NCBI GenBank assembly: GCA_963705355.1
Contig: OY970070.1
Location: 287,741 to 351,740, forward strand
DNA: 64,000 nt
Source of the DNA: an uncultured Thermoplasmata archaeon
GTDB lineage: Archaea; Thermoplasmatota; Thermoplasmata; UBA10834
Direction: 5' to 3'
Position 1 is the first letter of the stretch, and every line of letters begins with the position of its first letter. Under the pieces are notes generated by a model that was not told the origin of the DNA, ran no database searches, and worked only from the letters and a program-made list of their open reading frames with translations. The position numbers and the translations under genes were made by a program. This document shows positions 8,067 through 26,843 of the stretch, piece after piece.

Positions 8067-8917
8067 CTCACGACATGAAGGTCCGAGAGGTCATGACCGA
8101 GAATCCGATCATCGCCGAGCTCCCCGGGACCAGGACCGAGGTTCTGAAGAGGCTGGTGAAGAACAACATAACGGGCCTGCCCGTTGTGAAGAGCGATGAC
8201 GGGTCCTTGGCGGGGTTCGTCACCAGGCAGGATATTTTCGCGAAGCCCGACGAGGAGCAGCTCGCCCTCGTAATGAGGCGAGACGTTCCTTCGATAGGCC
8301 CCAATGCAAGCGTCAAGGACGCGGCAAGGGCTCTCGTCGACAACCATCTCAGCCATCTGCCTGTGGTCGATAAAGGAAAGCTCGTGGGCGTGATCACGCC
8401 CACGGATCTGCTGATAGTCGTTGAGAAGGACAACCCGCAGATTGCAGTCGAGGAGATCGTGCGATCACCTTGCATTCCGATTTACAACGGCGCTCCTCTG
8501 TCAGTCGCGCTTGCGACGTTCAGGGGCGCGAAGGTGTATGCATTGCCCGTTCTGGACGACGATGCGAAATTGGTCGGGATAATCACGGACAGAGACATCT
8601 TCAACCAGACAGTGGTTGACAGCTCGGTCGTCATGAGCGACCTGGGAATAGGCGATGACGAGGACAACTGGACCTGGGAGGGCCTCAGAAACGTGATGAA
8701 GCTCTGGTACGAGGTGTCCAGGGTCGACTTGCCGAAGCTGACAGTGAAGGACATCATGATCAAGAACCCGATGACTGTGTTCAGGAAGACTCTAGTTGGG
8801 GACGCCGCTCGCATCATGAGGAAAAACGATTTCGGGCAGCTTCCTGTCAGGGACTCAAAGGACAACCTCGTGGCGATGGTTTATGATATAGATGTGGTAT
8901 CCACGCTCACAAAGTGA
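8063..8917 (+). CDS. CBS-domain protein (four CBS repeats)
   Basis: Repeated ...GLPVV / HLPVVD / ALPVLDDD / QLPVRD segments in CBS-domain pairs. 4-nt overlap with the upstream usp gene. Confidence 0.8.
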   Translation: MTHDMKVREVMTENPIIAELPGTRTEVLKRLVKNNITGLPVVKSDDGSLAGFVTRQDIFAKPDEEQLALVMRRDVPSIGPNASVKDAARALVDNHLSHLPVVDKGKLVGVITPTDLLIVVEKDNPQIAVEEIVRSPCIPIYNGAPLSVALATFRGAKVYALPVLDDDAKLVGIITDRDIFNQTVVDSSVVMSDLGIGDDEDNWTWEGLRNVMKLWYEVSRVDLPKLTVKDIMIKNPMTVFRKTLVGDAARIMRKNDFGQLPVRDSKDNLVAMVYDIDVVSTLTK

Positions 8918-17864: not shown

Positions 17865-17874
17865 GAATACTGAG

Positions 17875-17948
17875 TGCGGCCGCCGGGATTTGAACCCGAG
17901 TTTTGAGCTTGGCAAGCTCAAGTGATAACCAGGCTACACTACAGCCGC
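17875..17948 (-). tRNA. tRNA-Gly (anticodon GCC)
   Basis: Reverse complement GCGGCTGTAGTGTAGCCTGGTTATCACTTGAGCTTGCCAAGCTCAAAACTCGGGTTCAAATCCCGGCGGCCGCA folds as a cloverleaf. Anticodon loop TTGCCAA, T-arm CGGGTTCAAATCCCG, 7-bp acceptor stem. Confidence 0.85.
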
Positions 17949-19355: not shown

Positions 19356-20135
19356 CTATTCGCCCTCAGCGTTCATCCTCGCCGTCCAGTGGGAAAGGTT
19401 CAATCCCTGCTCCTTCGCCAGCCTTTCCATTGCTCTCAGCACTCCTGAGCTGTACTGGGCGGCCTTCTTGGGCCGATTGCGGGATGGAAGGCCCAGGATT
19501 TCGGCTACCTCTCTGAGGATGATCTTCCGACCGGCAGAACTGACTTTCTTTTCCAGCGGCGTGTCCACAGCTGCAGAAATGACCGTGGCGGTGGCGTATG
19601 GAAATCCAATGGTCTTGCCGAGTGCAGTGGCTTCTGACGCCAGCAGTCGGGCTTCACAGAGCATCTTCGTCAAGTCGGCCGCCATGGTCTCGGCAGGGTT
19701 TCCAACGCGAGAATACTTCGCGTAACCGCCGAACAGCTCATCTGCTCCGCTCCCAGCTAGAACGATTTTCTCTGCGGATCTCTGAAGAACGCAGAGGATC
19801 GGGATCGTGTAGGCGATTTTCACCGGATCGCTCGTATTGAGGATTCTTGATGCCCTTCGCGCAAGAGACTCCACATTCTCCGCCTTCAATTCTATCAAGC
19901 TCAGCTTCCTTCCTTCTTCATCGGCACACTGCCGCGCGTTGAGCGCGTCAAAGGATCCTTCTGTGGCACACGTGTAGCACATTACGCTCGTTTTCTCGCT
20001 GGCAAGTGCTGCAAGTATTGAGCTATCAAGGCCTCCAGAATAGGCGACAGCTGCCCTGCTCTCTTCAGCGATGAGGTCAGATACGGCGGCTCTCAACCTT
20101 GTGAGGAGAAGGTTCGAATTCATGATTGACACCAA
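19356..20135 (-). CDS. Asparagine-synthase-C-terminal-domain-like PP-loop ATP pyrophosphatase
   Basis: SGGLDSS PP-loop and the AsnB-type SGADELFGGY motif in a ~259 aa stand-alone protein. Confidence 0.55.
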   Translation of the reverse strand: MVSIMNSNLLLTRLRAAVSDLIAEESRAAVAYSGGLDSSILAALASEKTSVMCYTCATEGSFDALNARQCADEEGRKLSLIELKAENVESLARRASRILNTSDPVKIAYTIPILCVLQRSAEKIVLAGSGADELFGGYAKYSRVGNPAETMAADLTKMLCEARLLASEATALGKTIGFPYATATVISAAVDTPLEKKVSSAGRKIILREVAEILGLPSRNRPKKAAQYSSGVLRAMERLAKEQGLNLSHWTARMNAEGE

Positions 20136-20296
20136 GAGCCTCGCTCAACGACAAAAACCCATCGTCTTGGCGGGTCTGCGCATAGGCGACATTCTGGTCG
20201 TCTCAGGGCAGCCAGATGATGACCAAAGGCTTAAAAGGCATCGAGGTCATCTACCTGCAATCCCAGGTTTCGAACCCCCAAACGGAGGGCTCATTG

Positions 20297-20830
20297 ATGG
20301 CTGAAGACGACCTGATGAAAGTCAAAGTATGCTTTATCGGAGATGCAGGCGTTGGCAAGACGAGCCTGATCAAGAGATTTGTACTGGACGTGTTCGACGA
20401 CCGGTACATCGCAACGATTGGAACGAAGGTCACCAAGAAGATCGTCGACGTCGACGGCCAGGCGAAGGTCATGATGCTTGTCTGGGACATAATGGGCCAG
20501 AAAGGCTTCAGAGAGCTCCTGCGCGAGGCATATTTCTTCGGCGCCCACGGCGCCATTGCAGTCTGCGACCTCACGAACAAGGAGACACTCGAAGAGCTGA
20601 GATACTGGATCAAGGCCCTGACTGATGTTGCGGGCGATGTCCCTATCGTGTTCGCCGGCAACAAGGTCGATCTCGAGAACGACAGGGTCATCAAGGAGCA
20701 GGACCTGCAGGAGCTGGCTTCGAAGTACAAGGGGAAGTCATTCTTGACGAGCGCGAAGACAGGTCAGAACGTTGAGGCCGCGTTCAAGACCCTCGCTGAG
20801 GCGATGTCCGAAAGAATGAAGAGCCAATAA
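20297..20830 (+). CDS. Ras-superfamily small GTPase, Rab/Ras-like (~178 aa)
   Basis: G1 GDAGVGKT, switch-I T (YIATIGT), G3 WDIMGQ, G4 GNKVD, G5 TSAK, and Rab-like YFFGAHGAI. Start chosen at ATG 20297, 7 nt after a GGAGGG RBS; the track start 20216 is a likely over-extension. Confidence 0.8.
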   Translation: MAEDDLMKVKVCFIGDAGVGKTSLIKRFVLDVFDDRYIATIGTKVTKKIVDVDGQAKVMMLVWDIMGQKGFRELLREAYFFGAHGAIAVCDLTNKETLEELRYWIKALTDVAGDVPIVFAGNKVDLENDRVIKEQDLQELASKYKGKSFLTSAKTGQNVEAAFKTLAEAMSERMKSQ

Positions 20831-20891
20831 TGGGCTAGTTTTCATTCCCAGTATTGATAACGACTTGAGAACACTTATAAGCCCAGCACAG

Positions 20892-20901
20892 TCTATAAAA
20901 T
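20892..20901 (+). promoter_or_regulatory. TATA-like box (TCTATAAAAT) upstream of the giant surface-protein gene
   Basis: AT-rich decamer in the 150-bp intergenic region between the GTPase gene and the surface-protein gene. Confidence 0.3.
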
Positions 20902-20982
20902 CGCACGAGAGGCGAGGCTAAATTGGCTGTGCGTTTGGGCAAACGCCTTATAGTGGTAAGTCAAACACAGTCCTTCGGACAC

Positions 20983-23900
20983 ATGAGGATACTCGCTACC
21001 TTCTTCGCCCTTTTCCTTGTCGCATCGCCTTTTCTTCCCTTGGCCAACCATAGCGTTCGCGACGCGGAGGCTGCTTCCCTTTCTTCTTGGACTAGAGTGT
21101 TCTATCTTCATGAGGGCGTAGCGTACGTCCCTTGGGGAACCTATGACTGGTTGAACTCATCGGGCCCCGCGAACCCTTCTCGAACTGACTACGACGGTGA
21201 CGGCGTCGAGGGCATCACCCTCAGACATCCGGGACTATGGCAAACATGGCATGGCTGGATCTTGTATCCGAGAGTTGGTTCTGACGTTTCCGTGTCAGGC
21301 GATATGGGGGTGAATGTCTGGGCGAGAAGCATCGATAACTCGCCGGGAATTGTCATGCGGGCGCGATTCTTTGACATCACAGCAGGTCAATGGTCGGACC
21401 CACGTAATGGAATTGAATTGGGCAATGCGACGCTTCCGCTCGCGGGTCCGGACTACTCTGTGTACCAGCTCTATTCTTTCACGATTGCTAGCGTATCATA
21501 CGTTCTCCCATCTGGTCACTATCTTGCGCTGGTCATCGAGCGACGGGACAATGATAACAGTCGACTCGTGATCTACTTTGACAAAACAGACTATGCCTCT
21601 TACATCACTCTCAACACAACGACTTTCGTGAACGTGGATTCCGCCCGGACCGTGGATTCGTACGGTTCTCCGCGGGGAACCTTCTCAGATCAGGAGAGCG
21701 CCGTTGTTGAGGCGAACGTGTCAGATCCGTTTGGAGCATATGACATAGTGGCAGCCTATGTTCAGGTTTTGAACGAGAGCGGTGTTGTCAACGCGACTAC
21801 TTCGATGAATCTCGTCCAAACAGATCCTTCCCAGCCTGGCTACTGGAAAAGTTACAGCCTGGCACTGTCACTCTTGCCTGAGGGCAGCTACACAGTGAAT
21901 GTCACCGCTAGTGATCCTCAGGGCACGCCCACATGGATGAATCTGTCTCTCACGATTGTGTCGGTCGATCACTTCCTTGTGTCGGCCCCTTCAGCAATCG
22001 TTGCCGGCTCACTCTTCTCGATGACGGTCTCGGCTCTGGATTCCTCCAACTCCATCATAACGAATTGGGTTGGCCAGGTTCAGCTGGCTGCATACGAACC
22101 GGATCTGGTGACGCCGGGGGTGAGGCTGTTGGCTCGGACACTTCTGGTCTTCACGCCGGGTGACGGAGGTCAGGTGACTATATCGGATCAGAACTACACT
22201 TTCGGCGAGGACACGATTCGCATCAAGGCTTCGTCTGGAGTCCACGTTGGCTGGAGCGGGCTCATAGCTGTTTCCAGCGGGCCGGTCATCCGCATCCTCA
22301 TCTCTCCGCCGGGTCCTGAGACCGTCGCTTCAGGAACCTCAAGGGCCTTCACTGCTACGGGCCTTGATGTTCTTGGAAACATCAACACGACTTGGTCTCC
22401 GAATTGGACCGTGCCGTCCAGCATCGGCACGATTTCGGGAGCCGGCCTCTCAGTGACCTTCACAGCTTCGTTGGTTGGCTCGGGTAATCTGAGGTGCAAG
22501 AACGATTTGACAGACGCGAACAGGACCGCTCTTATTAATGTTGTTGTGGGAGAGTTGGCAAGGATTGTCATCTCTGCTCCGTCTGATCCTCTCCTGATTG
22601 GAGAGAACGAGACTCAAGCCCTTACTGCGACTGGCTACGATGTCAATGCAAATCTGGTGGATATCACTGGCGCTATTTGGCGTACCAACACTTCCGGGGC
22701 TGTCAATGGCAGTGGGCCGTCCGGAGTCTATCGGGCGGGATTCATCCCTGAGGTTGGTGTCATCAGCGTCAGAGTCGGCGGCATCGTTGGGGTGCTTAGT
22801 GTTGTCGTTGTTAGCGGTATCCATGGACCCTGGCTCAGCACGATACCGGAGCAGATTCAGAACGAGGACGGAGGGACATGGGAGCTTAGCCTTACTGGGT
22901 ATTGGCATGACGACGAGGGGACCGAGTCCCTCAGATGGTCGGTCGAGGACGTCAATATGTCGCTCTATATCGTCACACATGATCCGAATTCGAATGCCGT
23001 GCTGAGGCTGACCACCCAACCGAATCAGAACGGGGAGGACGCGCTCCGGCTTTGGGTTGTGGACAGTGGAGGCTATTGGACATATCAGTGGGTGACCGTC
23101 AAGATACTCCCGGTAAATGATGCGCCTCAATTCGTCAACAATCCTCCGACGCGACTCAGTGTGAGATTCGACGACCCCTACGTATTCGACTACACGTACT
23201 ATGTCTGGGACGTTGACAATGCGAAGTCGGAATTGGGGATGAGCGCATCCTTGCCCAGCTCCAGCGGCGGCAGCATCGAATTCGATGGACTCATTGCCAC
23301 CTTCCTGTTCCCTTCGGACCCAAGCCGTGGCTCGACCTACTTCGAGATTGTCACTCTTTCAGTGATAGATCCCGCCGACGCTTCTTCTCAATTGAAGTTA
23401 GCCGTATATGTCACTTGGGACTACCCTCCTCGCTTGAACACCAGCCTGCCCAACCAAACGCTGTATGAGGGGGACGTCCTTCACTATTGTTTTAACCTCG
23501 ACTCATATTTCTATGATGTTGAGGGCTCGTACCTATATTACTCCTACGGCTTCCAGCATCTCCAGGTCTACATAGCCTGGAACCACTCGGTCTACATGAA
23601 CGCGACGGAGGAGTGGTCTGGCACGACCGACGGCGCGTTCACTGCCACAGACCCTGAAGGTGCTCTGAAGACCGACATGATCACAGTCACCGTGATCGCA
23701 GTCAATGATGCGCCGATTGTGAGAAGTCCAGGATCTATTCTAGTGAAATACAACGTCACATACTACCTCTACCTGAGCCAGTATGTGTTCGACCCGGACA
23801 ACTCAATTGATTCCTTGACATTCACGTTCAACGACACGCACGTGAAGGAGACATCGACCTTCATGGGCAGCTACCGACTCGAGATACTGTTTCCGGGAAG

Positions 23901-25149
23901 CATCCTCCCTGATTCCGATATCTTCCTTGGCCCATACCTTGTCTATGTTCACATGGAGGTTACTGATCCTGGTGGTCTGATGACCCCCTGCAATTTCACG
24001 GTCTTTGTGACGGACGACGCTCCGCCGACTGTGATTGCCCCGAATCCGGACGCGACTTACTACGCATTCCCTGAGAACTCATATCTGAACAACTCGCTGA
24101 GGATGTACGATTTGTTCTGGGATCCCGACGATTCGATGCTCAATTTCACAATCGTGGGGAACAGATTCGTTCACCTCCAAATCTACTCAAACGGTGTCGT
24201 CAATCTGACTTCAGATGTGAATTGGTCGGGAACGGAGGTCCTCACAATCACGGCAAAGGATTCACATCTCGGCTGGGCATCGTTCCGCGCGTACGTGACG
24301 GTCACGCCAGTCAATCAGGCTCCTTGGATCTATCCAATCCCCGACATGATCGTCAAGACGGGGCATATTGATGCGCCATTCTACATCCTCGACTACATTT
24401 ACGATAGCGACGATGCTCCGGAGAACCTGACGATTACTGCATCTCCTGCTGAGAGCGTGGCTGTCGTCGGAGGGTTCCTCTACGTCACGCTCCCGCACGG
24501 AGTTGATGTCATAACGGTCACCATTCAGGCGAGCGACGGCAAATTGCAGTCCAATGTCAGAATCTTCAAGGTTGGTGTGGAGAAGACGATGGCTGAGAGA
24601 ATCGGCTGGCCCTATACGTTCCCGCTTGTGTTGCTGGCGGCAGGCGTCGCGGGCTACTTCCTGGCGAGCCGGATCCCGCGGCCGTACGCGCTTGAGAACA
24701 TCTTCCTCATTCACAACGATGGCAGGCTCATTGCACATGTCACCAAAGAGGAGAACACTAATCTGGACAAGGATGTGGTGAGCGCCATGTTCACGGCAGT
24801 CCAAGAGTTCGTCCGGGACTCCTTCCAGAAAGGTGAGGTGGGACTCAAGAAGCTTGAGATCGGTGACAAGAGAGTCATCATCGAGAAGGGGCAGTGGGCT
24901 TACGCCGCGTTGATATACTCTGGTTGGCCGGCGAAGGAGACCTTCGAGAACCTCCCCATGCTATTGAGGGACATCGAGGAACGCTACAAGGGCAGGCTGG
25001 AGAGGTGGAACGGCACCATGAAGACCGTCGTGGGGGTCGACAAGATGCTCCAAGAGTTCATGGCGGATACCTACAGGCCGGGAACGTGGCACGAAGAGGA
25101 GGAGATCGGTGAGGAGCGGTGGGTCGACATCCTCGAGAAGGAGGCCTAG
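20983..25149 (+). CDS. Giant (~1390 aa) secreted/membrane-anchored surface protein: signal peptide, N-terminal DxDxDG-containing domain, cadherin-like repeats, one C-terminal TM helix, cytoplasmic Roadblock/LC7-like domain
   Basis: Signal peptide MRILATFFALFLVASPFLPLA. Many N-x-S/T sequons. Repeated cadherin-type linkers (VNDAPQF, AVNDAPIV, PVNQAPWI) with DxD/DxNxD motifs. TM helix WPYTFPLVLLAAGVAGYFLA, then IFLIHNDGRLIAH...DVVSAMFTAVQEF...GLKKLEIGDKRVIIEKGQWAYAALIYSG, which matches the Roadblock/LC7 pattern. The track start 20923 is a TTG; ATG 20983 gives a cleaner signal peptide. Confidence 0.7.
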   Translation: MRILATFFALFLVASPFLPLANHSVRDAEAASLSSWTRVFYLHEGVAYVPWGTYDWLNSSGPANPSRTDYDGDGVEGITLRHPGLWQTWHGWILYPRVGSDVSVSGDMGVNVWARSIDNSPGIVMRARFFDITAGQWSDPRNGIELGNATLPLAGPDYSVYQLYSFTIASVSYVLPSGHYLALVIERRDNDNSRLVIYFDKTDYASYITLNTTTFVNVDSARTVDSYGSPRGTFSDQESAVVEANVSDPFGAYDIVAAYVQVLNESGVVNATTSMNLVQTDPSQPGYWKSYSLALSLLPEGSYTVNVTASDPQGTPTWMNLSLTIVSVDHFLVSAPSAIVAGSLFSMTVSALDSSNSIITNWVGQVQLAAYEPDLVTPGVRLLARTLLVFTPGDGGQVTISDQNYTFGEDTIRIKASSGVHVGWSGLIAVSSGPVIRILISPPGPETVASGTSRAFTATGLDVLGNINTTWSPNWTVPSSIGTISGAGLSVTFTASLVGSGNLRCKNDLTDANRTALINVVVGELARIVISAPSDPLLIGENETQALTATGYDVNANLVDITGAIWRTNTSGAVNGSGPSGVYRAGFIPEVGVISVRVGGIVGVLSVVVVSGIHGPWLSTIPEQIQNEDGGTWELSLTGYWHDDEGTESLRWSVEDVNMSLYIVTHDPNSNAVLRLTTQPNQNGEDALRLWVVDSGGYWTYQWVTVKILPVNDAPQFVNNPPTRLSVRFDDPYVFDYTYYVWDVDNAKSELGMSASLPSSSGGSIEFDGLIATFLFPSDPSRGSTYFEIVTLSVIDPADASSQLKLAVYVTWDYPPRLNTSLPNQTLYEGDVLHYCFNLDSYFYDVEGSYLYYSYGFQHLQVYIAWNHSVYMNATEEWSGTTDGAFTATDPEGALKTDMITVTVIAVNDAPIVRSPGSILVKYNVTYYLYLSQYVFDPDNSIDSLTFTFNDTHVKETSTFMGSYRLEILFPGSILPDSDIFLGPYLVYVHMEVTDPGGLMTPCNFTVFVTDDAPPTVIAPNPDATYYAFPENSYLNNSLRMYDLFWDPDDSMLNFTIVGNRFVHLQIYSNGVVNLTSDVNWSGTEVLTITAKDSHLGWASFRAYVTVTPVNQAPWIYPIPDMIVKTGHIDAPFYILDYIYDSDDAPENLTITASPAESVAVVGGFLYVTLPHGVDVITVTIQASDGKLQSNVRIFKVGVEKTMAERIGWPYTFPLVLLAAGVAGYFLASRIPRPYALENIFLIHNDGRLIAHVTKEENTNLDKDVVSAMFTAVQEFVRDSFQKGEVGLKKLEIGDKRVIIEKGQWAYAALIYSGWPAKETFENLPMLLRDIEERYKGRLERWNGTMKTVVGVDKMLQEFMADTYRPGTWHEEEEIGEERWVDILEKEA

Positions 25150-26843
25150 TAGCTATCCTCGGCGAGCTTCCGCATCGCGTACTCGTGAAGCGTCTCTCTC
25201 TGTGGTCCGAGATCGGTGTCGAACTGCTCCTTCATCTTCTGGGCAACTGCTCTCCTCATGAACCTGAGCGGTAGACAGCCGCTGTATAGCAGCCAGTCAT
25301 GGAACAGCTTCAACGAGAACTTGTTCCCAAGTGCTTTTCTGACGTCCTCTCTAAGCTGCATGATCGAGAGCTTTCCGAGGAAATAGGATGAGTAGTAGGT
25401 CGGCGACATCGCGCACGAACGCGCTTCAATCCAAGATGCCTTCTTGTCCATCCCACACTCGTCGATAAACAGCTGAGCACCCTCATCTATGGTGAAGTCT
25501 CCTTTCGCAAGCCGCACCTCGACAATCATCCGCGCTATCCTGAACATGAGATCGTTCAGATACGTGAACCTGCCGAGAGGATTATCATTGAATCCCGATG
25601 AGATCATGAGTTCCTCAGAGTACAGTCCCCAGCCCTCGCCGAAGTCCGGGGACGCGATAAGGATTCTGATGGTGGAAGGGTTCGTGTTGGAACAAATGCC
25701 TTGGAGGTGGTGACCGGGATAAGCTTCGTGAACAGTTGTGTTTTCAATCTCGGCGTAACTGTGTTCCCGTAGCAGCTCAGATTGGTCCTCATCGGGCGTC
25801 ACAAGGAACATGCCCGTCCGAGATTCATCGAATTTGCCCGGTTCGAACTGAGCAGCGAAAGGCGTCATAGGCCGCATGAACATGGGCGTTTCGAGGACCA
25901 ACAGCTTCTCGTTCTCAGGAATCGTCACAAGGTCCTTCTGTTCCACGAAATCCCGGGCTCTTTTGACAGCTTCTCTGTACGCCTTCAATGCGGCCTCAAA
26001 CGTCTCTGGATGTCTGGATTTCATCGATTCCATTGCCTCTGCCGGATTGCCTGAGGGAACGATGCTTTTGGCTACCTCAGCCATTTGCTTCCTCACAAGC
26101 TCTAGGTATCTTTCCCCAATCTCAAGTGCTTCCTCAGCAGTCACTCCCCAATCCTTCATCTTGAGATATTGCTCGTACTCATCGATGTCGATGGCGAAAT
26201 TCGGGCTGGCCTTCGGAATCACCTTTTCCCGGAGCCATTTGTTATGATCCTCGACAGTGCGAATCGCGGCATTCGCGACCTTTGCCAATCGCTCCTTCTT
26301 ATGTAGGTCGCATGATTTCCTCTCCGCCAGTTTCTCGATGTCTCTGATCAATCCCGGAATCTCAAGTCCTGCTTCCAGAGCTGCTTGGTTCCAAATCCTA
26401 GACGGAGACCTGAGGGCCTTGCGCGACTCTGCAAGAAACGCTGGCACTTCGTCCAGTCTGCTTATAATCGATTCTAGTCTTTCGTCGAAGGACGGGTGGT
26501 CTCTCATGAACAGGAAGAACAGAGAGTAGCCGACCTCGCTGCATGCCAACGATTCCCTCTCAAAGAGCTTCAGGTCTGCGATCTCAAAAAGCTTCAACTT
26601 CAGTATGTAGGCCGCAAGATCGACGTCCAGACGGTCGTCTGGAGAAAGCTTCTCAGATGAGACGACGTTCAGCAGCTGGAGTAGTTCCTCAATTCTTCTG
26701 CAAATGCGTGTTCTTGACGACTCGCTAGCGTCCCTGAGGACCTGATCATACTTGTGCCAGCCGACTTGAGTCGCATAGGACGGATCCCAGCTCAGGAATT
26801 CGTCCATCAAGGACTCCGCCAGTTCCACGTAGGATGTGCCCAT
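25146..26843 (-). CDS. DUF885-family protein (putative metallopeptidase-like)
   Basis: Family-typical HEAYPGHHLQ motif in a ~565 aa protein. The family is mostly bacterial. Confidence 0.6.
   Translation of the reverse strand: MGTSYVELAESLMDEFLSWDPSYATQVGWHKYDQVLRDASESSRTRICRRIEELLQLLNVVSSEKLSPDDRLDVDLAAYILKLKLFEIADLKLFERESLACSEVGYSLFFLFMRDHPSFDERLESIISRLDEVPAFLAESRKALRSPSRIWNQAALEAGLEIPGLIRDIEKLAERKSCDLHKKERLAKVANAAIRTVEDHNKWLREKVIPKASPNFAIDIDEYEQYLKMKDWGVTAEEALEIGERYLELVRKQMAEVAKSIVPSGNPAEAMESMKSRHPETFEAALKAYREAVKRARDFVEQKDLVTIPENEKLLVLETPMFMRPMTPFAAQFEPGKFDESRTGMFLVTPDEDQSELLREHSYAEIENTTVHEAYPGHHLQGICSNTNPSTIRILIASPDFGEGWGLYSEELMISSGFNDNPLGRFTYLNDLMFRIARMIVEVRLAKGDFTIDEGAQLFIDECGMDKKASWIEARSCAMSPTYYSSYFLGKLSIMQLREDVRKALGNKFSLKLFHDWLLYSGCLPLRFMRRAVAQKMKEQFDTDLGPQRETLHEYAMRKLAEDSY

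Follow-up and report, generated by a model that had tools for sequence, protein, structure and literature searches.

A Rab/Ras-like small GTPase gene next to a giant surface protein with a predicted cytoplasmic longin-fold tail in an uncultured Thermoplasmata archaeon

The window, that is the whole 64-kb stretch of DNA that was analysed, carries a single small GTPase gene and a single gene for the tail domain that is the subject of this work. The two genes lie side by side on the + strand, 152 bp apart, between an Asn-synthase-like gene and a DUF885 gene, in agreement with a previous sequence-only reading of the same DNA that had described an adjacent, co-oriented pair separated by about 150 bp. 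The features of the locus are collected in Table 1.

Table 1. Features of the GTPase/surface protein locus, in window coordinates
Feature	Coordinates	Strand	Basis and remarks
BRE/TATA-like block, candidate promoter, CAAAGGCTTAAAAG	20224..20237	+	5' of the GTPase gene; near-invariant when 13 orthologous upstream regions are aligned
Shine-Dalgarno-like GGAGG	20284..20288	+	8 nt 5' of the GTPase ATG; invariant in 13/13 orthologous loci
Rab/Ras-like small GTPase, 177 aa	20297..20830	+	Pfam Ras match, G1-G5 motifs
Conserved intergenic block	20855..20900	+	TGATAAC 20855-20861, CTTATAA 20874-20880, CTATAAAA 20893-20900
Signal-peptide-like N-terminal hydrophobic segment, MRILATFFALFLVASPFLPLANHS...	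20983..21072	+	Read from the translation
Ectodomain, ~1180 aa	21073..24606	+	Motif and sequon counts, profile matches
Single TM helix, WPYTFPLVLLAAGVAGYFLA, aa 1209-1228	24607..24666	+	Hydropathy scan; followed by positively charged SRIPRP
Cytoplasmic longin-fold domain (predicted), aa 1236-1360	24688..25062	+	Predicted structure
Acidic C-terminal extension with E-E-W-V-D-I-L motif, and stop codon	25063..25149	+	Motif conserved among orthologues

The product of the first gene is an intact small GTPase of the Ras superfamily (PF00071). The Pfam Ras profile matches it with E=1.6e-39 (135.5 bits, cut-off 21.6) and the NCBIfam small_GTP profile with 9.6e-21, and direct reading of the translation confirmed, as the sequence-only reading had claimed, all five G-boxes: G1 GDAGVGKT, G2 T40, G3 WDIMGQ, in which the switch-II Gln is kept, G4 NKVD and G5 SAK. 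The closest sequences in the PDB are eukaryotic Rabs (Rab26 at 3.4e-32, then Ypt6, Rab1 and Rab8). The protein is, however, Rab-like by sequence similarity only: a bona fide Rab has a C-terminal Cys, while the translated C-terminus (...AMSERMKSQ) contains no Cys and hence no CC, CXC or CAAX prenylation motif. Inspection of the sequence revealed no TM or hydrophobic segment either. A pseudogene, the objection that the sequence-only reading had raised against its own proposal, can be set aside, because the gene is intact and homologues with 82-99% identity are found in many Thermoplasmata MAGs. The start is placed at the ATG at 20297, since this codon and the preceding GGAGG are invariant across 13 orthologous loci; a longer ORF beginning at 20216 was rejected, as its start would precede the conserved TATA box.

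When the 13 orthologous regions upstream of the GTPase gene are aligned, they are diverged apart from the BRE/TATA-like block, whose position and sequence suggest a promoter role. In the 13 orthologous intergenic regions, where the mean column identity is 45%, TGATAAC and TTATA are invariant, and the block that contains them is probably a separate promoter or operator of the large gene. Since a conserved promoter-like block precedes each of the two genes, they need not share one operon.

The large gene runs from an ATG at 20983 to a stop codon ending at 25149 on the + strand and encodes a protein of 1388 aa. The overall plan given by the sequence-only reading (signal peptide, DxDxDG domain, one TM helix, about 1390 aa) was recovered, with a signal-like segment, a DYDGDG motif at aa 69-74 (21187-21204) and a single helix at aa 1209-1228. 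NxS/T sequons number 29 on the N-terminal side of this helix and 1 on its C-terminal side. The membrane-proximal half of the ectodomain (aa ~640-1200) appears to consist of β-sandwich repeats joined by VNDAP-type linkers, four of which are visible in the sequence, while profile searches matched no family in the first 640 aa. The four or more cadherin-like repeats proposed earlier depend on a single marginal match: Pfam Big_9 matches aa 1028-1102 with 24.2 bits, barely above its cut-off of 23.6, but Cadherin_4 (E 0.002-0.03) stays under its curated cut-off, the NCBIfam tandem-95 repeat reaches 66 bits with a cut-off of 90, and self-BLAST detected no internal repeats at E<=0.01. The label "cadherin" is thus only weakly supported for this ectodomain.

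The cytoplasmic tail is 160 aa long, and the domain within it takes up about 125 aa, instead of the ~80 aa first suggested. When the tail was scanned against Pfam at E<=10, nothing matched, Robl_LC7 and the longin families included, and neither phmmer nor a profile search of the PDB sequences gave anything relevant. Among 32 diverse members of the tail family the only recurrent Pfam signals were Robl_LC7, in six of them with a best E of 0.017, and Fuz_longin_1, in three, all below threshold. The fold was assigned from structure prediction: two AF2 models of the tail, built from different input alignments, have the same topology, β-β-α-β-β-β-α-α, with a pLDDT of ~78-79, the fold being accordingly a prediction and not a solved structure. 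A Foldseek search concurs with a longin fold, and Roadblock entries rank below about 40 longin structures. Thus the tail, as modelled, superposes on known longins and is a predicted longin domain in the sense of a structural class. The AF2 and Foldseek check that the sequence-only reading had proposed for its "Roadblock/LC7" domain therefore returned a longin; a cytoplasmic domain of the longin/Roadblock structural superfamily stands, but neither the Robl_LC7 profile nor the Roadblock topology (α-β-β-α-β-β-β) was recovered, the tail models starting with two strands and ending in helices. The near-invariant residues of the domain are G1247, D1262, M1269, T1271, Q1274, F1276, E1332, W1342 and G1344, and conservation across the family peaks in helix α1, with the pattern D-x-D-[IV]-[LV]-S-x-M-[FL]-T-A-[VI]-Q-[ED]-F and a near-invariant Gln. 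In the acidic extension that follows the domain, close homologues show little or no variation at W150, V151, D152 and I153 (tail numbering); the extension forms a low-confidence helix in model 2 and is missing in distant family members.

An exhaustive profile search retrieved 4469 representatives of the tail family (clusters at 50% identity) at E<=1e-3 and 2720 at E<=1e-10, and the family is not in Pfam. Among 149 top representatives, a TM-like segment lies within 45 aa N-terminal of the domain in 107, and the domain is C-terminal in 111. These sequence features point to a large, unannotated prokaryotic family that is usually placed right next to a TM helix, on its cytoplasmic side, some members being fused instead to STAND/AAA_16-TPR or zinc ribbons.

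The synteny check suggested by the sequence-only reading gave a positive answer. In all orthologous loci with upstream DNA (L001-L005, L007, L008, L010 and L012-L023; tail identity 48-82%) the GTPase is immediately upstream and co-oriented, while the downstream neighbours vary. Among the more diverged members examined, with 28-41% identity, a Ras-family GTPase abuts the domain gene upstream in L024, L028, L038, L039, L045 and L051, and on the downstream side, in many cases right at the stop codon, in L058, L065, L066, L072, L074, L078, L080 and L081; a small family member of 194 aa with two TM segments also has a Ras GTPase directly downstream. The adjacency recurs, with other gene order, spacing and flanks, across diverged subfamilies of archaea and five bacterial phyla/classes, and the two frames abut or overlap in bacterial loci and in several diverged archaeal ones (e.g., L028 and L045). 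Over 1.11 Mb of locus DNA, 31 GTPase matches fall within 600 bp of a domain gene and 7 elsewhere; moreover, in an unbiased clustering of neighbours the GTPase ranks first (22 independent loci), well ahead of the next real cluster (7). The flanking DNA examined held no Ras-like GTPase at ~45 of ~62 diverged family loci, which implies that in these cases the domain uses GTPases encoded elsewhere or has other partners. A mirror-tree comparison of GTPase and tail identities gave a Spearman coefficient of 0.72, which was not counted as evidence because shared phylogeny alone accounts for the value.

A bacterial version of this arrangement has been described. A Rup GTPase beside a protein made of an unknown domain, a TM helix and OmpA was reported as a conserved bacterial neighbourhood, the partner domain being left without fold or function (Wuichet and Søgaard-Andersen, 2014; PMC4316618). 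The bacterial loci L078 and L058, with a coiled-coil ORF, a [domain]-TM-OmpA gene, a Ras GTPase and an HD-GYP or hybrid histidine kinase gene in this order, have the layout of the Group 1 Rup neighbourhood of that paper, and the tail profile matches the N-terminal "unknown" domain of their TM-OmpA protein with E of ~1e-25 to 1e-31. The sequence-only reading, which knew of no description of the arrangement, is to be corrected as regards the bacterial gene pair, for which the 2014 paper assigned no fold (PMC4316618). As in Group 1 Rup, the homologous domain of the window protein lies beside a single TM helix on the cytoplasmic side, and its gene adjoins that of a Ras-family GTPase. The orientation in the membrane is instead inverted: the Group 1 Rup order is N-terminal domain, TM and periplasmic OmpA, whereas in the window a giant ectodomain precedes the TM helix and a C-terminal domain. 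Furthermore, the Group 1 Rup GTPases lack the Gln of the G3 motif (WDVAGT, WDIAGE, WDMEGR), which is present in the window (WDIMGQ), and the window pair has no adjoining coiled-coil, OmpA, c-di-GMP or histidine-kinase output gene. Of the traits that define Group 1 Rup, the window pair thus shares the domain next to a TM helix, but it keeps the catalytic Gln and lacks the full neighbourhood. In the literature found, we encountered neither a TM-anchored longin with a GTPase in Thermoplasmata nor a fold assignment for the Rup1 partner domain, which is weak evidence, subscription literature being thinly covered.

The ArvA/ArvB/ArvC genes of Euryarchaeota likewise comprise a small GTPase with conserved adjoining partner genes (PMC10927574), the partners being DUF2073 and DUF2072 proteins encoded 3' of the GTPase (PMC10927574). 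This vesiculation operon was considered and rejected for the window, where neither DUF is present and the downstream gene encodes the 1388-aa surface protein; a defence-system reading was rejected as well, PADLOC defence models giving no meaningful match. Longin-domain regulators or receptors of GTPases are well known in eukaryotes (TRAPP, Mon1-Ccz1, DENN, FLCN-FNIP, GATOR1 Nprl2/3 and SRα SRX-SRβ). The window tail has no detectable sequence homology to them and, while they belong to soluble or peripheral multi-subunit complexes, the predicted longin of the window is part of a surface protein, at its cytoplasmic end. In MglA-MglB, where MglB is a Roadblock/LC7 GAP/GEF, and in Ragulator-Rag, the Ras-like GTPase is regulated or anchored by a small α/β platform of the longin/Roadblock superfamily, and by analogy the modelled tail may provide one too. 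Functionally, the closest analogue of a TM-anchored platform is Ragulator, which is itself fixed to the membrane and brings in GTPases without lipid anchors. Longin/Roadblock proteins and small GTPases are also known from Asgard archaea (PMC10933270; PDB 8yqg, 9jq8), a lineage other than the Thermoplasmatota considered here; unlike them, the window domain is TM-anchored and its cognate pair adjacent. In MK-D1, the GTPase genes generally do not share operons with longin or Roadblock genes, so that partners are hard to assign (PMC10933270).

The reading that we favour, and consider reasonably probable, is that the tail acts as a membrane-anchored platform of predicted longin fold, binding the cognate GTPase and regulating it. 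The two genes would then form a module of a soluble Rab/Ras-like GTPase and a type-I surface glycoprotein with a cytoplasmic longin tail. The tail, probably dimeric like other longin/Roadblock platforms, would bind the GTPase on the cytoplasmic side of the membrane and so recruit a protein that has no lipid anchor; recruitment of this kind would be needed, because the GTPase has neither a C-terminal Cys nor a hydrophobic segment. The tail may control or read the nucleotide state of the GTPase, whether by GAP or GEF activity or by anchoring one state specifically, so that a cytoplasmic GTPase switch would be coupled to the surface protein, to its state or its clustering. The one-component outside-in signalling with Ca2+ or cadherin-type sensing that the sequence-only reading had suggested would be conjectural. 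In eukaryotes, longin/Roadblock modules regulate Rab, Rag, Arf and SRβ. Direct binding between tail and GTPase, GAP/GEF activity, dimerisation and the direction of signalling are the parts of this scheme that we infer.

The same genomic and fold evidence would equally suit a scheme, less probable in our view but a serious competitor, in which the direction is inside-out: the GTPase would be the upstream switch and the longin tail its effector or receptor, the GTP form controlling the placement, clustering, engagement or turnover of the surface protein. Precedents are SRβ-GTP, which binds the SRX longin of SRα, and MglA-GTP, which promotes assembly of the adhesion/motility complex in Myxococcus. 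Among orthologues with a GTPase identity of at least 81%, the GTPase is 82-92% identical to that of the window and the tail/ectodomain 66-82%, and a GTPase better conserved than its partner is in keeping with a central switch for variable surface proteins. Many genomes have several tail-bearing surface proteins and few adjoining GTPases, and the separate promoter-like blocks of the two genes also agree with this scheme. On the other hand, output enzymes (histidine kinase, HD-GYP) follow the homologous bacterial modules, which suggests that signalling proceeds onward from the GTPase and not towards the membrane protein.

It is considerably harder to maintain that the tail works independently of a GTPase, for dimerisation or as a scaffold or cytoskeletal anchor, with the adjacency being an inherited gene order devoid of direct functional coupling. 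Longin folds do have roles without GTPases, examples being SNARE regulation and the AP σ/μ cores; most of the diverged members have no GTPase in the flanks examined, and the two genes have separate promoter-like blocks. In addition, the upstream Asn-synthase-like and Mur-ligase-like genes are syntenic in orthologues too, indicating that gene order is generally conserved in this lineage. A merely inherited order is nonetheless at odds with an adjacency that persists through changes of order, spacing and flanks in diverged archaea and five bacterial phyla/classes, with the 31-to-7 enrichment and the first rank of the GTPase in neighbour clustering, and with the abutting or overlapping frames in bacterial loci and in L028 and L045. 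What appears least probable is a role of the tail in sensing small molecules or peptides, as a member of the wider PAS/GAF/profilin-like α/β class and not as a GTPase platform, even if GAF/PAS-like folds and longin domains have been placed in one group (De Franceschi, 2014, cited in PMC4917890) and the tail has no sequence-level family match in Pfam or among PDB sequences.

Longin/Roadblock platforms are central, together with small GTPases, to eukaryotic membrane traffic and nutrient signalling, and the regulatory partnership of longins with small GTPases is otherwise known mainly from eukaryotic membrane traffic and Asgard genomes. The prokaryotic roots of the longin/Roadblock-GTPase pairing have been argued mainly from Asgard genomes, in which the genes are unlinked (PMC10933270). 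An adjacent, conserved, one-to-one pair of a Rab-like GTPase and a longin offers instead testable cognate partners and, since the pairing of domain and GTPase recurs in many archaea and bacteria, for each such GTPase a partner can be named and put to the test. Moreover, a large non-Pfam family (4469 clusters) gains a predicted fold and a likely role, and the "unknown domain" of Group 1 Rup would be explained by the longin-fold family. It is possible, and we put it forward tentatively, that these proteins belong to a large class of prokaryotic TM receptors in which a longin tail directly switches a dedicated Ras/Rab-like GTPase in response to what happens at the ectodomain, for instance adhesion, clustering or contact with a wall. 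If so, a single ancient system would exist in two forms, the Rup1-OmpA modules of bacteria and the giant-adhesin modules of archaea, and the longin-small GTPase partnership would extend to non-Asgard archaea and to bacteria. For the archaea, the findings suggest that many giant surface proteins are wired to cytoplasmic GTPase switches.

The locus consists of two co-oriented open reading frames (ORFs) on the plus strand, which confirms the basic observation of the sequence-only reading, namely a GTPase gene beside the gene of a giant surface protein; the wider surroundings are housekeeping in character (a class-I tRNA synthetase, a DEAD helicase, a methyltransferase, a Mur-ligase-like gene and an amino-acid permease-Usp fusion). 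The closest MAG, from Thermoplasmata (locus L006, JBASRQ010000082.1), is 94.8% identical to the window at the nucleotide level over 14.2 kb, which assigns the window to that lineage. A GTPase start at 20216, which would give a longer ORF, was ruled out, since across 13 aligned upstream regions of orthologues GGAGG and the ATG at 20297 are invariant and a promoter-like block, ~60 nt 5' of this ATG, is conserved. The intergenic block, (nearly) invariant in 13 orthologues amid diverged surroundings, reads TGATAAC, 12 nt, CTTATAA, CCAGC...CTATAAAA; it resembles an archaeal BRE/TATA preceded by an operator-like TGATAAC, and the resulting 5' leader would measure ~60-80 nt. Since the conserved promoter-like blocks are separate, the two genes may be regulated independently.

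Features of the GTPase-surface protein locus and its flanks (window coordinates)
Feature	Coordinates	Strand	Remarks
tRNA-Gly(GCC)	17874-17948	−	sole tRNA in the window
Asn-synthase-like gene	19356-20135	−	divergent; flanks the GTPase side
Promoter-like block	20224-20237		CAAAGGCTTAAAAG
tRNA-like string	20266-20279		GGTTTCGAACCCCC; shortly 5' of the GTPase start; belongs to no predicted tRNA
Small GTPase gene	20297-20830	+	177 aa, from ATG 20297; Pfam Ras, NCBIfam small_GTP, G1-G5
Promoter-like intergenic block	20855-20900		
Surface protein gene	20983-25149	+	1388 aa, from ATG 20983; read from translation
Acidic C-terminal extension	25063-25146	+	ends E-E-W-V-D-I-L
DUF885 gene	25146-26843	−	convergent; flanks the surface-protein side

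The GTPase matches Pfam Ras (E=1.6e-39) and NCBIfam small_GTP (9.6e-21) and, read from its sequence, carries G1 GDAGVGKT, G2 T40, G3 WDIMGQ, G4 NKVD and G5 SAK, so that the five G-boxes ascribed to it are borne out. Among proteins of solved structure, the nearest in sequence are eukaryotic Rabs (Rab26, 3.4e-32, then Ypt6, Rab1 and Rab8), and neither a C-terminal cysteine nor a hydrophobic segment was found in it; judged from its sequence, it is a Rab-like protein without an evident membrane anchor of its own.

For the surface protein, the topology proposed earlier (signal peptide, ectodomain, one TM helix, cytoplasmic tail) matches the ORF: the N-terminus is signal-peptide-like, DYDGDG lies at aa 69-74, 29 NxS/T sequons precede aa 1209 and one follows it, and the single TM helix (aa 1209-1228) is succeeded by RIPRP and the 160-aa tail. 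The proposed cadherin-like repeats are weakly indicated: Pfam Big_9 barely attains its cut-off on the ectodomain, but Cadherin_4 and the NCBIfam 'tandem-95 repeat' stay under theirs and self-BLAST found no internal repeats. The N-terminal 640 aa match no Pfam or NCBIfam profile, and β-sandwich-repeat, adhesin-like, is the safer label. In L006 the large gene has a TAG at codon 648 (L006 nt 8252-8254), the window having GAG at 22924-22926, and its ectodomain ORF is otherwise collinear with that of the window; the TAG may reflect a nonsense polymorphism, pseudogene status, an error in sequencing or stop-codon recoding.

With a cut-off as loose as E<=10 the tail still matched nothing in Pfam, and PDB searches with the single sequence and with a profile returned nothing relevant. 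Among 32 diverse relatives the sole recurrent Pfam signals were sub-threshold, Robl_LC7 in 6 (best E 0.017) and Fuz_longin_1 in 3. Structure prediction was decisive. Two AlphaFold2 models, built from different alignments (12 close homologues; 30 diverse homologues of 23-82% identity), both reached pLDDT 78-79 and pTM 0.77 with the topology β1-β2-α1-β3-β4-β5-α2-α3. This is the longin order, that of Roadblock being α-β-β-α-β-β-β, and Foldseek agrees. The tail is thus predicted to be a longin-fold domain and not Roadblock/LC7: the placement in the longin/Roadblock superfamily is supported and the possibility of a fold outside both types did not materialize, while the specific Roadblock/MglB label and the size of ~80 aa fell, the domain measuring ~125 aa. 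Its most conserved element across the family is helix α1, DxD[IV][LV]SxM[FL]TA[VI]Q[ED]F, whose near-invariant Gln is aa 1274 in the window. The acidic extension after the domain is conserved in orthologues only, being absent from distant members, and forms a low-confidence helix in the second model; its resemblance to MglB's regulatory C-terminal helix is one of analogy only.

By profile similarity, the tail belongs to a large, membrane-hugging family absent from Pfam: an exhaustive search of 1.84 billion cluster representatives retrieved 4469 proteins at E<=1e-3, 2720 of them at E<=1e-10. Among the best 149 members, 107 carry a TM-like segment no more than 45 aa before the domain, the domain lies <=60 aa from the C-terminus in 111, and the type 'large N-terminal region-TM-domain' is clear in 64. 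Other architectures are ~195-aa proteins with two TM segments, zinc-ribbon-TM-domain, 4-TM proteins with two tandem copies, giants of 2200-2400 aa with two or three copies, and an AAA_16(STAND)-domain-TPR protein. In the giants (L030 4934-11479, L042 6440-13006, P0144, P0156-P0170) the longin-like copies are spaced ~500 aa from one another and separated by CARDB/Ig-like segments, domains of cytoplasmic and extracellular type thus alternating along one chain; most showed no TM segment in a hydropathy scan. Proteins of ~990 aa (L037 8684-11662; similar in L063, L069, L075, L077 and L052) carry an AAA_16/STAND P-loop segment, immediately followed by the longin-like domain (aa ~108-236) and then by long TPR arrays, which links the domain to a P-loop NTPase for a second time, here through fusion. 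With each species represented by one genome, the family occurs chiefly in MAGs of Thermoplasmata, Thermoplasmatota and Methanomassiliicoccales, and bacterial carriers are few (Halochromatium, another gammaproteobacterium, Thiothrix, Desulfobulbus, KSB1 and Anaerolineales).

The GTPase gene lies directly upstream, on the same strand, in every orthologous locus with upstream DNA (L001-L005, L007, L008, L010, L012-L023; GTPase identity to the window 75-92%, tail identity 48-82%), the downstream neighbour varying among Peptidase_M32, PALP and DUF885. Synteny extends to the Asn-synthase-like and Mur-ligase-like genes upstream, so this adjacency alone could be inherited gene order. Stronger evidence of partnership comes from diverged members (28-41% tail identity), where a Ras-family GTPase is adjacent upstream in L024, L028, L038, L039, L045 and L051 and downstream in L066, L074 and L081, as well as in five loci of bacteria (L058, L065, L072, L078, L080), with reading frames that abut or overlap; in a separate small-protein subfamily (P0302) a Ras GTPase likewise follows directly downstream. 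Over 80 loci (1.11 Mb), 31 GTPase matches fall within 600 bp of a domain gene and 7 elsewhere, and assumption-free clustering of all ORFs <=3 kb from domain genes places the GTPase top, with 22 independent loci (next real cluster, 7). The association is not universal: ~45 diverged loci showed no GTPase within the flanks retrieved, nor did the flanks of a zinc-ribbon member. The expected synteny of GTPase and TM-tail protein was found throughout the orthologues and again in diverged members and bacteria, and genomic context indicates that the GTPase is a conserved partner of the domain. In L024 (750-1933, Methanomassiliicoccales) two tandem GTPase genes precede the tail-bearing protein, and as the second of them is divided between two frames, a frameshift or assembly error is suggested. 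L044 and L059 (80-5338, 5492-10507) hold two tandem ~1700-aa surface proteins, each with the tail domain and with no GTPase close by. As several MAGs hold three or more tail-bearing paralogues, many receptors per GTPase are suggested.

The bacterial loci found with the tail profile have exactly the 'Group 1 Rup' layout described by Wuichet and Søgaard-Andersen (2014; PMC4316618): L078 encodes a small coiled-coil ORF, [domain]-TM-OmpA, a Ras GTPase and HD-GYP, and L058 differs in its last gene, a hybrid histidine kinase. Their GTPases lack the G3 glutamine (WDVAGT, WDIAGE, WDMEGR), as reported for this group (PMC4316618). Given the shared layout and Gln-less G3, the window tail is the archaeal homologue of the uncharacterised Rup1 partner domain. 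In public sources members are named 'hypothetical protein' or else 'OOP family OmpA-OmpF porin', a misleading label whose oddity this homology accounts for. Compared with Rup1, the archaeal protein is inverted (N-terminal ectodomain, C-terminal domain), the pair has no coiled-coil or output gene alongside, and the GTPase retains its catalytic Gln. The ArvA/B/C vesiculation system (PMC10927574) was rejected as a counterpart, its partner genes being different. The arrangement, of which the sequence-only reading was aware of no description, is hence partly known in its bacterial form since 2014; in a literature survey of incomplete coverage, neither a fold for the tail domain nor TM-anchored longin-GTPase pairs in Thermoplasmatota were found.

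Longin and Roadblock domains are dimeric platforms binding small GTPases, and function as GEFs (TRAPP, Mon1-Ccz1, DENN), GAPs (FLCN-FNIP, GATOR1, MglB) and receptors or anchors (SRX-SRβ, Ragulator-Rag). With a GTPase that lacks a lipid anchor and a conserved partner domain fixed at the inner membrane face, the module is most economically read as one in which the tail would recruit the GTPase to that face and regulate or read its nucleotide state; the surface protein would thereby be coupled to a cytoplasmic GTPase switch. Information may flow outside-in, as first proposed, or inside-out, the GTPase controlling the adhesin; the sequence is compatible with either direction. That the tail domain supplies Gln in trans (the equivalent of aa 1274) is speculation, testable because Rup1 GTPases have no catalytic Gln of their own.

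The module belongs among kinds already known, the longin/Roadblock-small GTPase modules and the Rup1 neighbourhood. GTPase genes of the Asgard archaeon MK-D1 are as a rule unlinked to longin or Roadblock genes (PMC10933270), and the pair in the window is useful because here they are linked. What is new is the predicted fold assignment for a large family and the fusion of this domain to giant surface proteins in an archaeal lineage outside Asgard.
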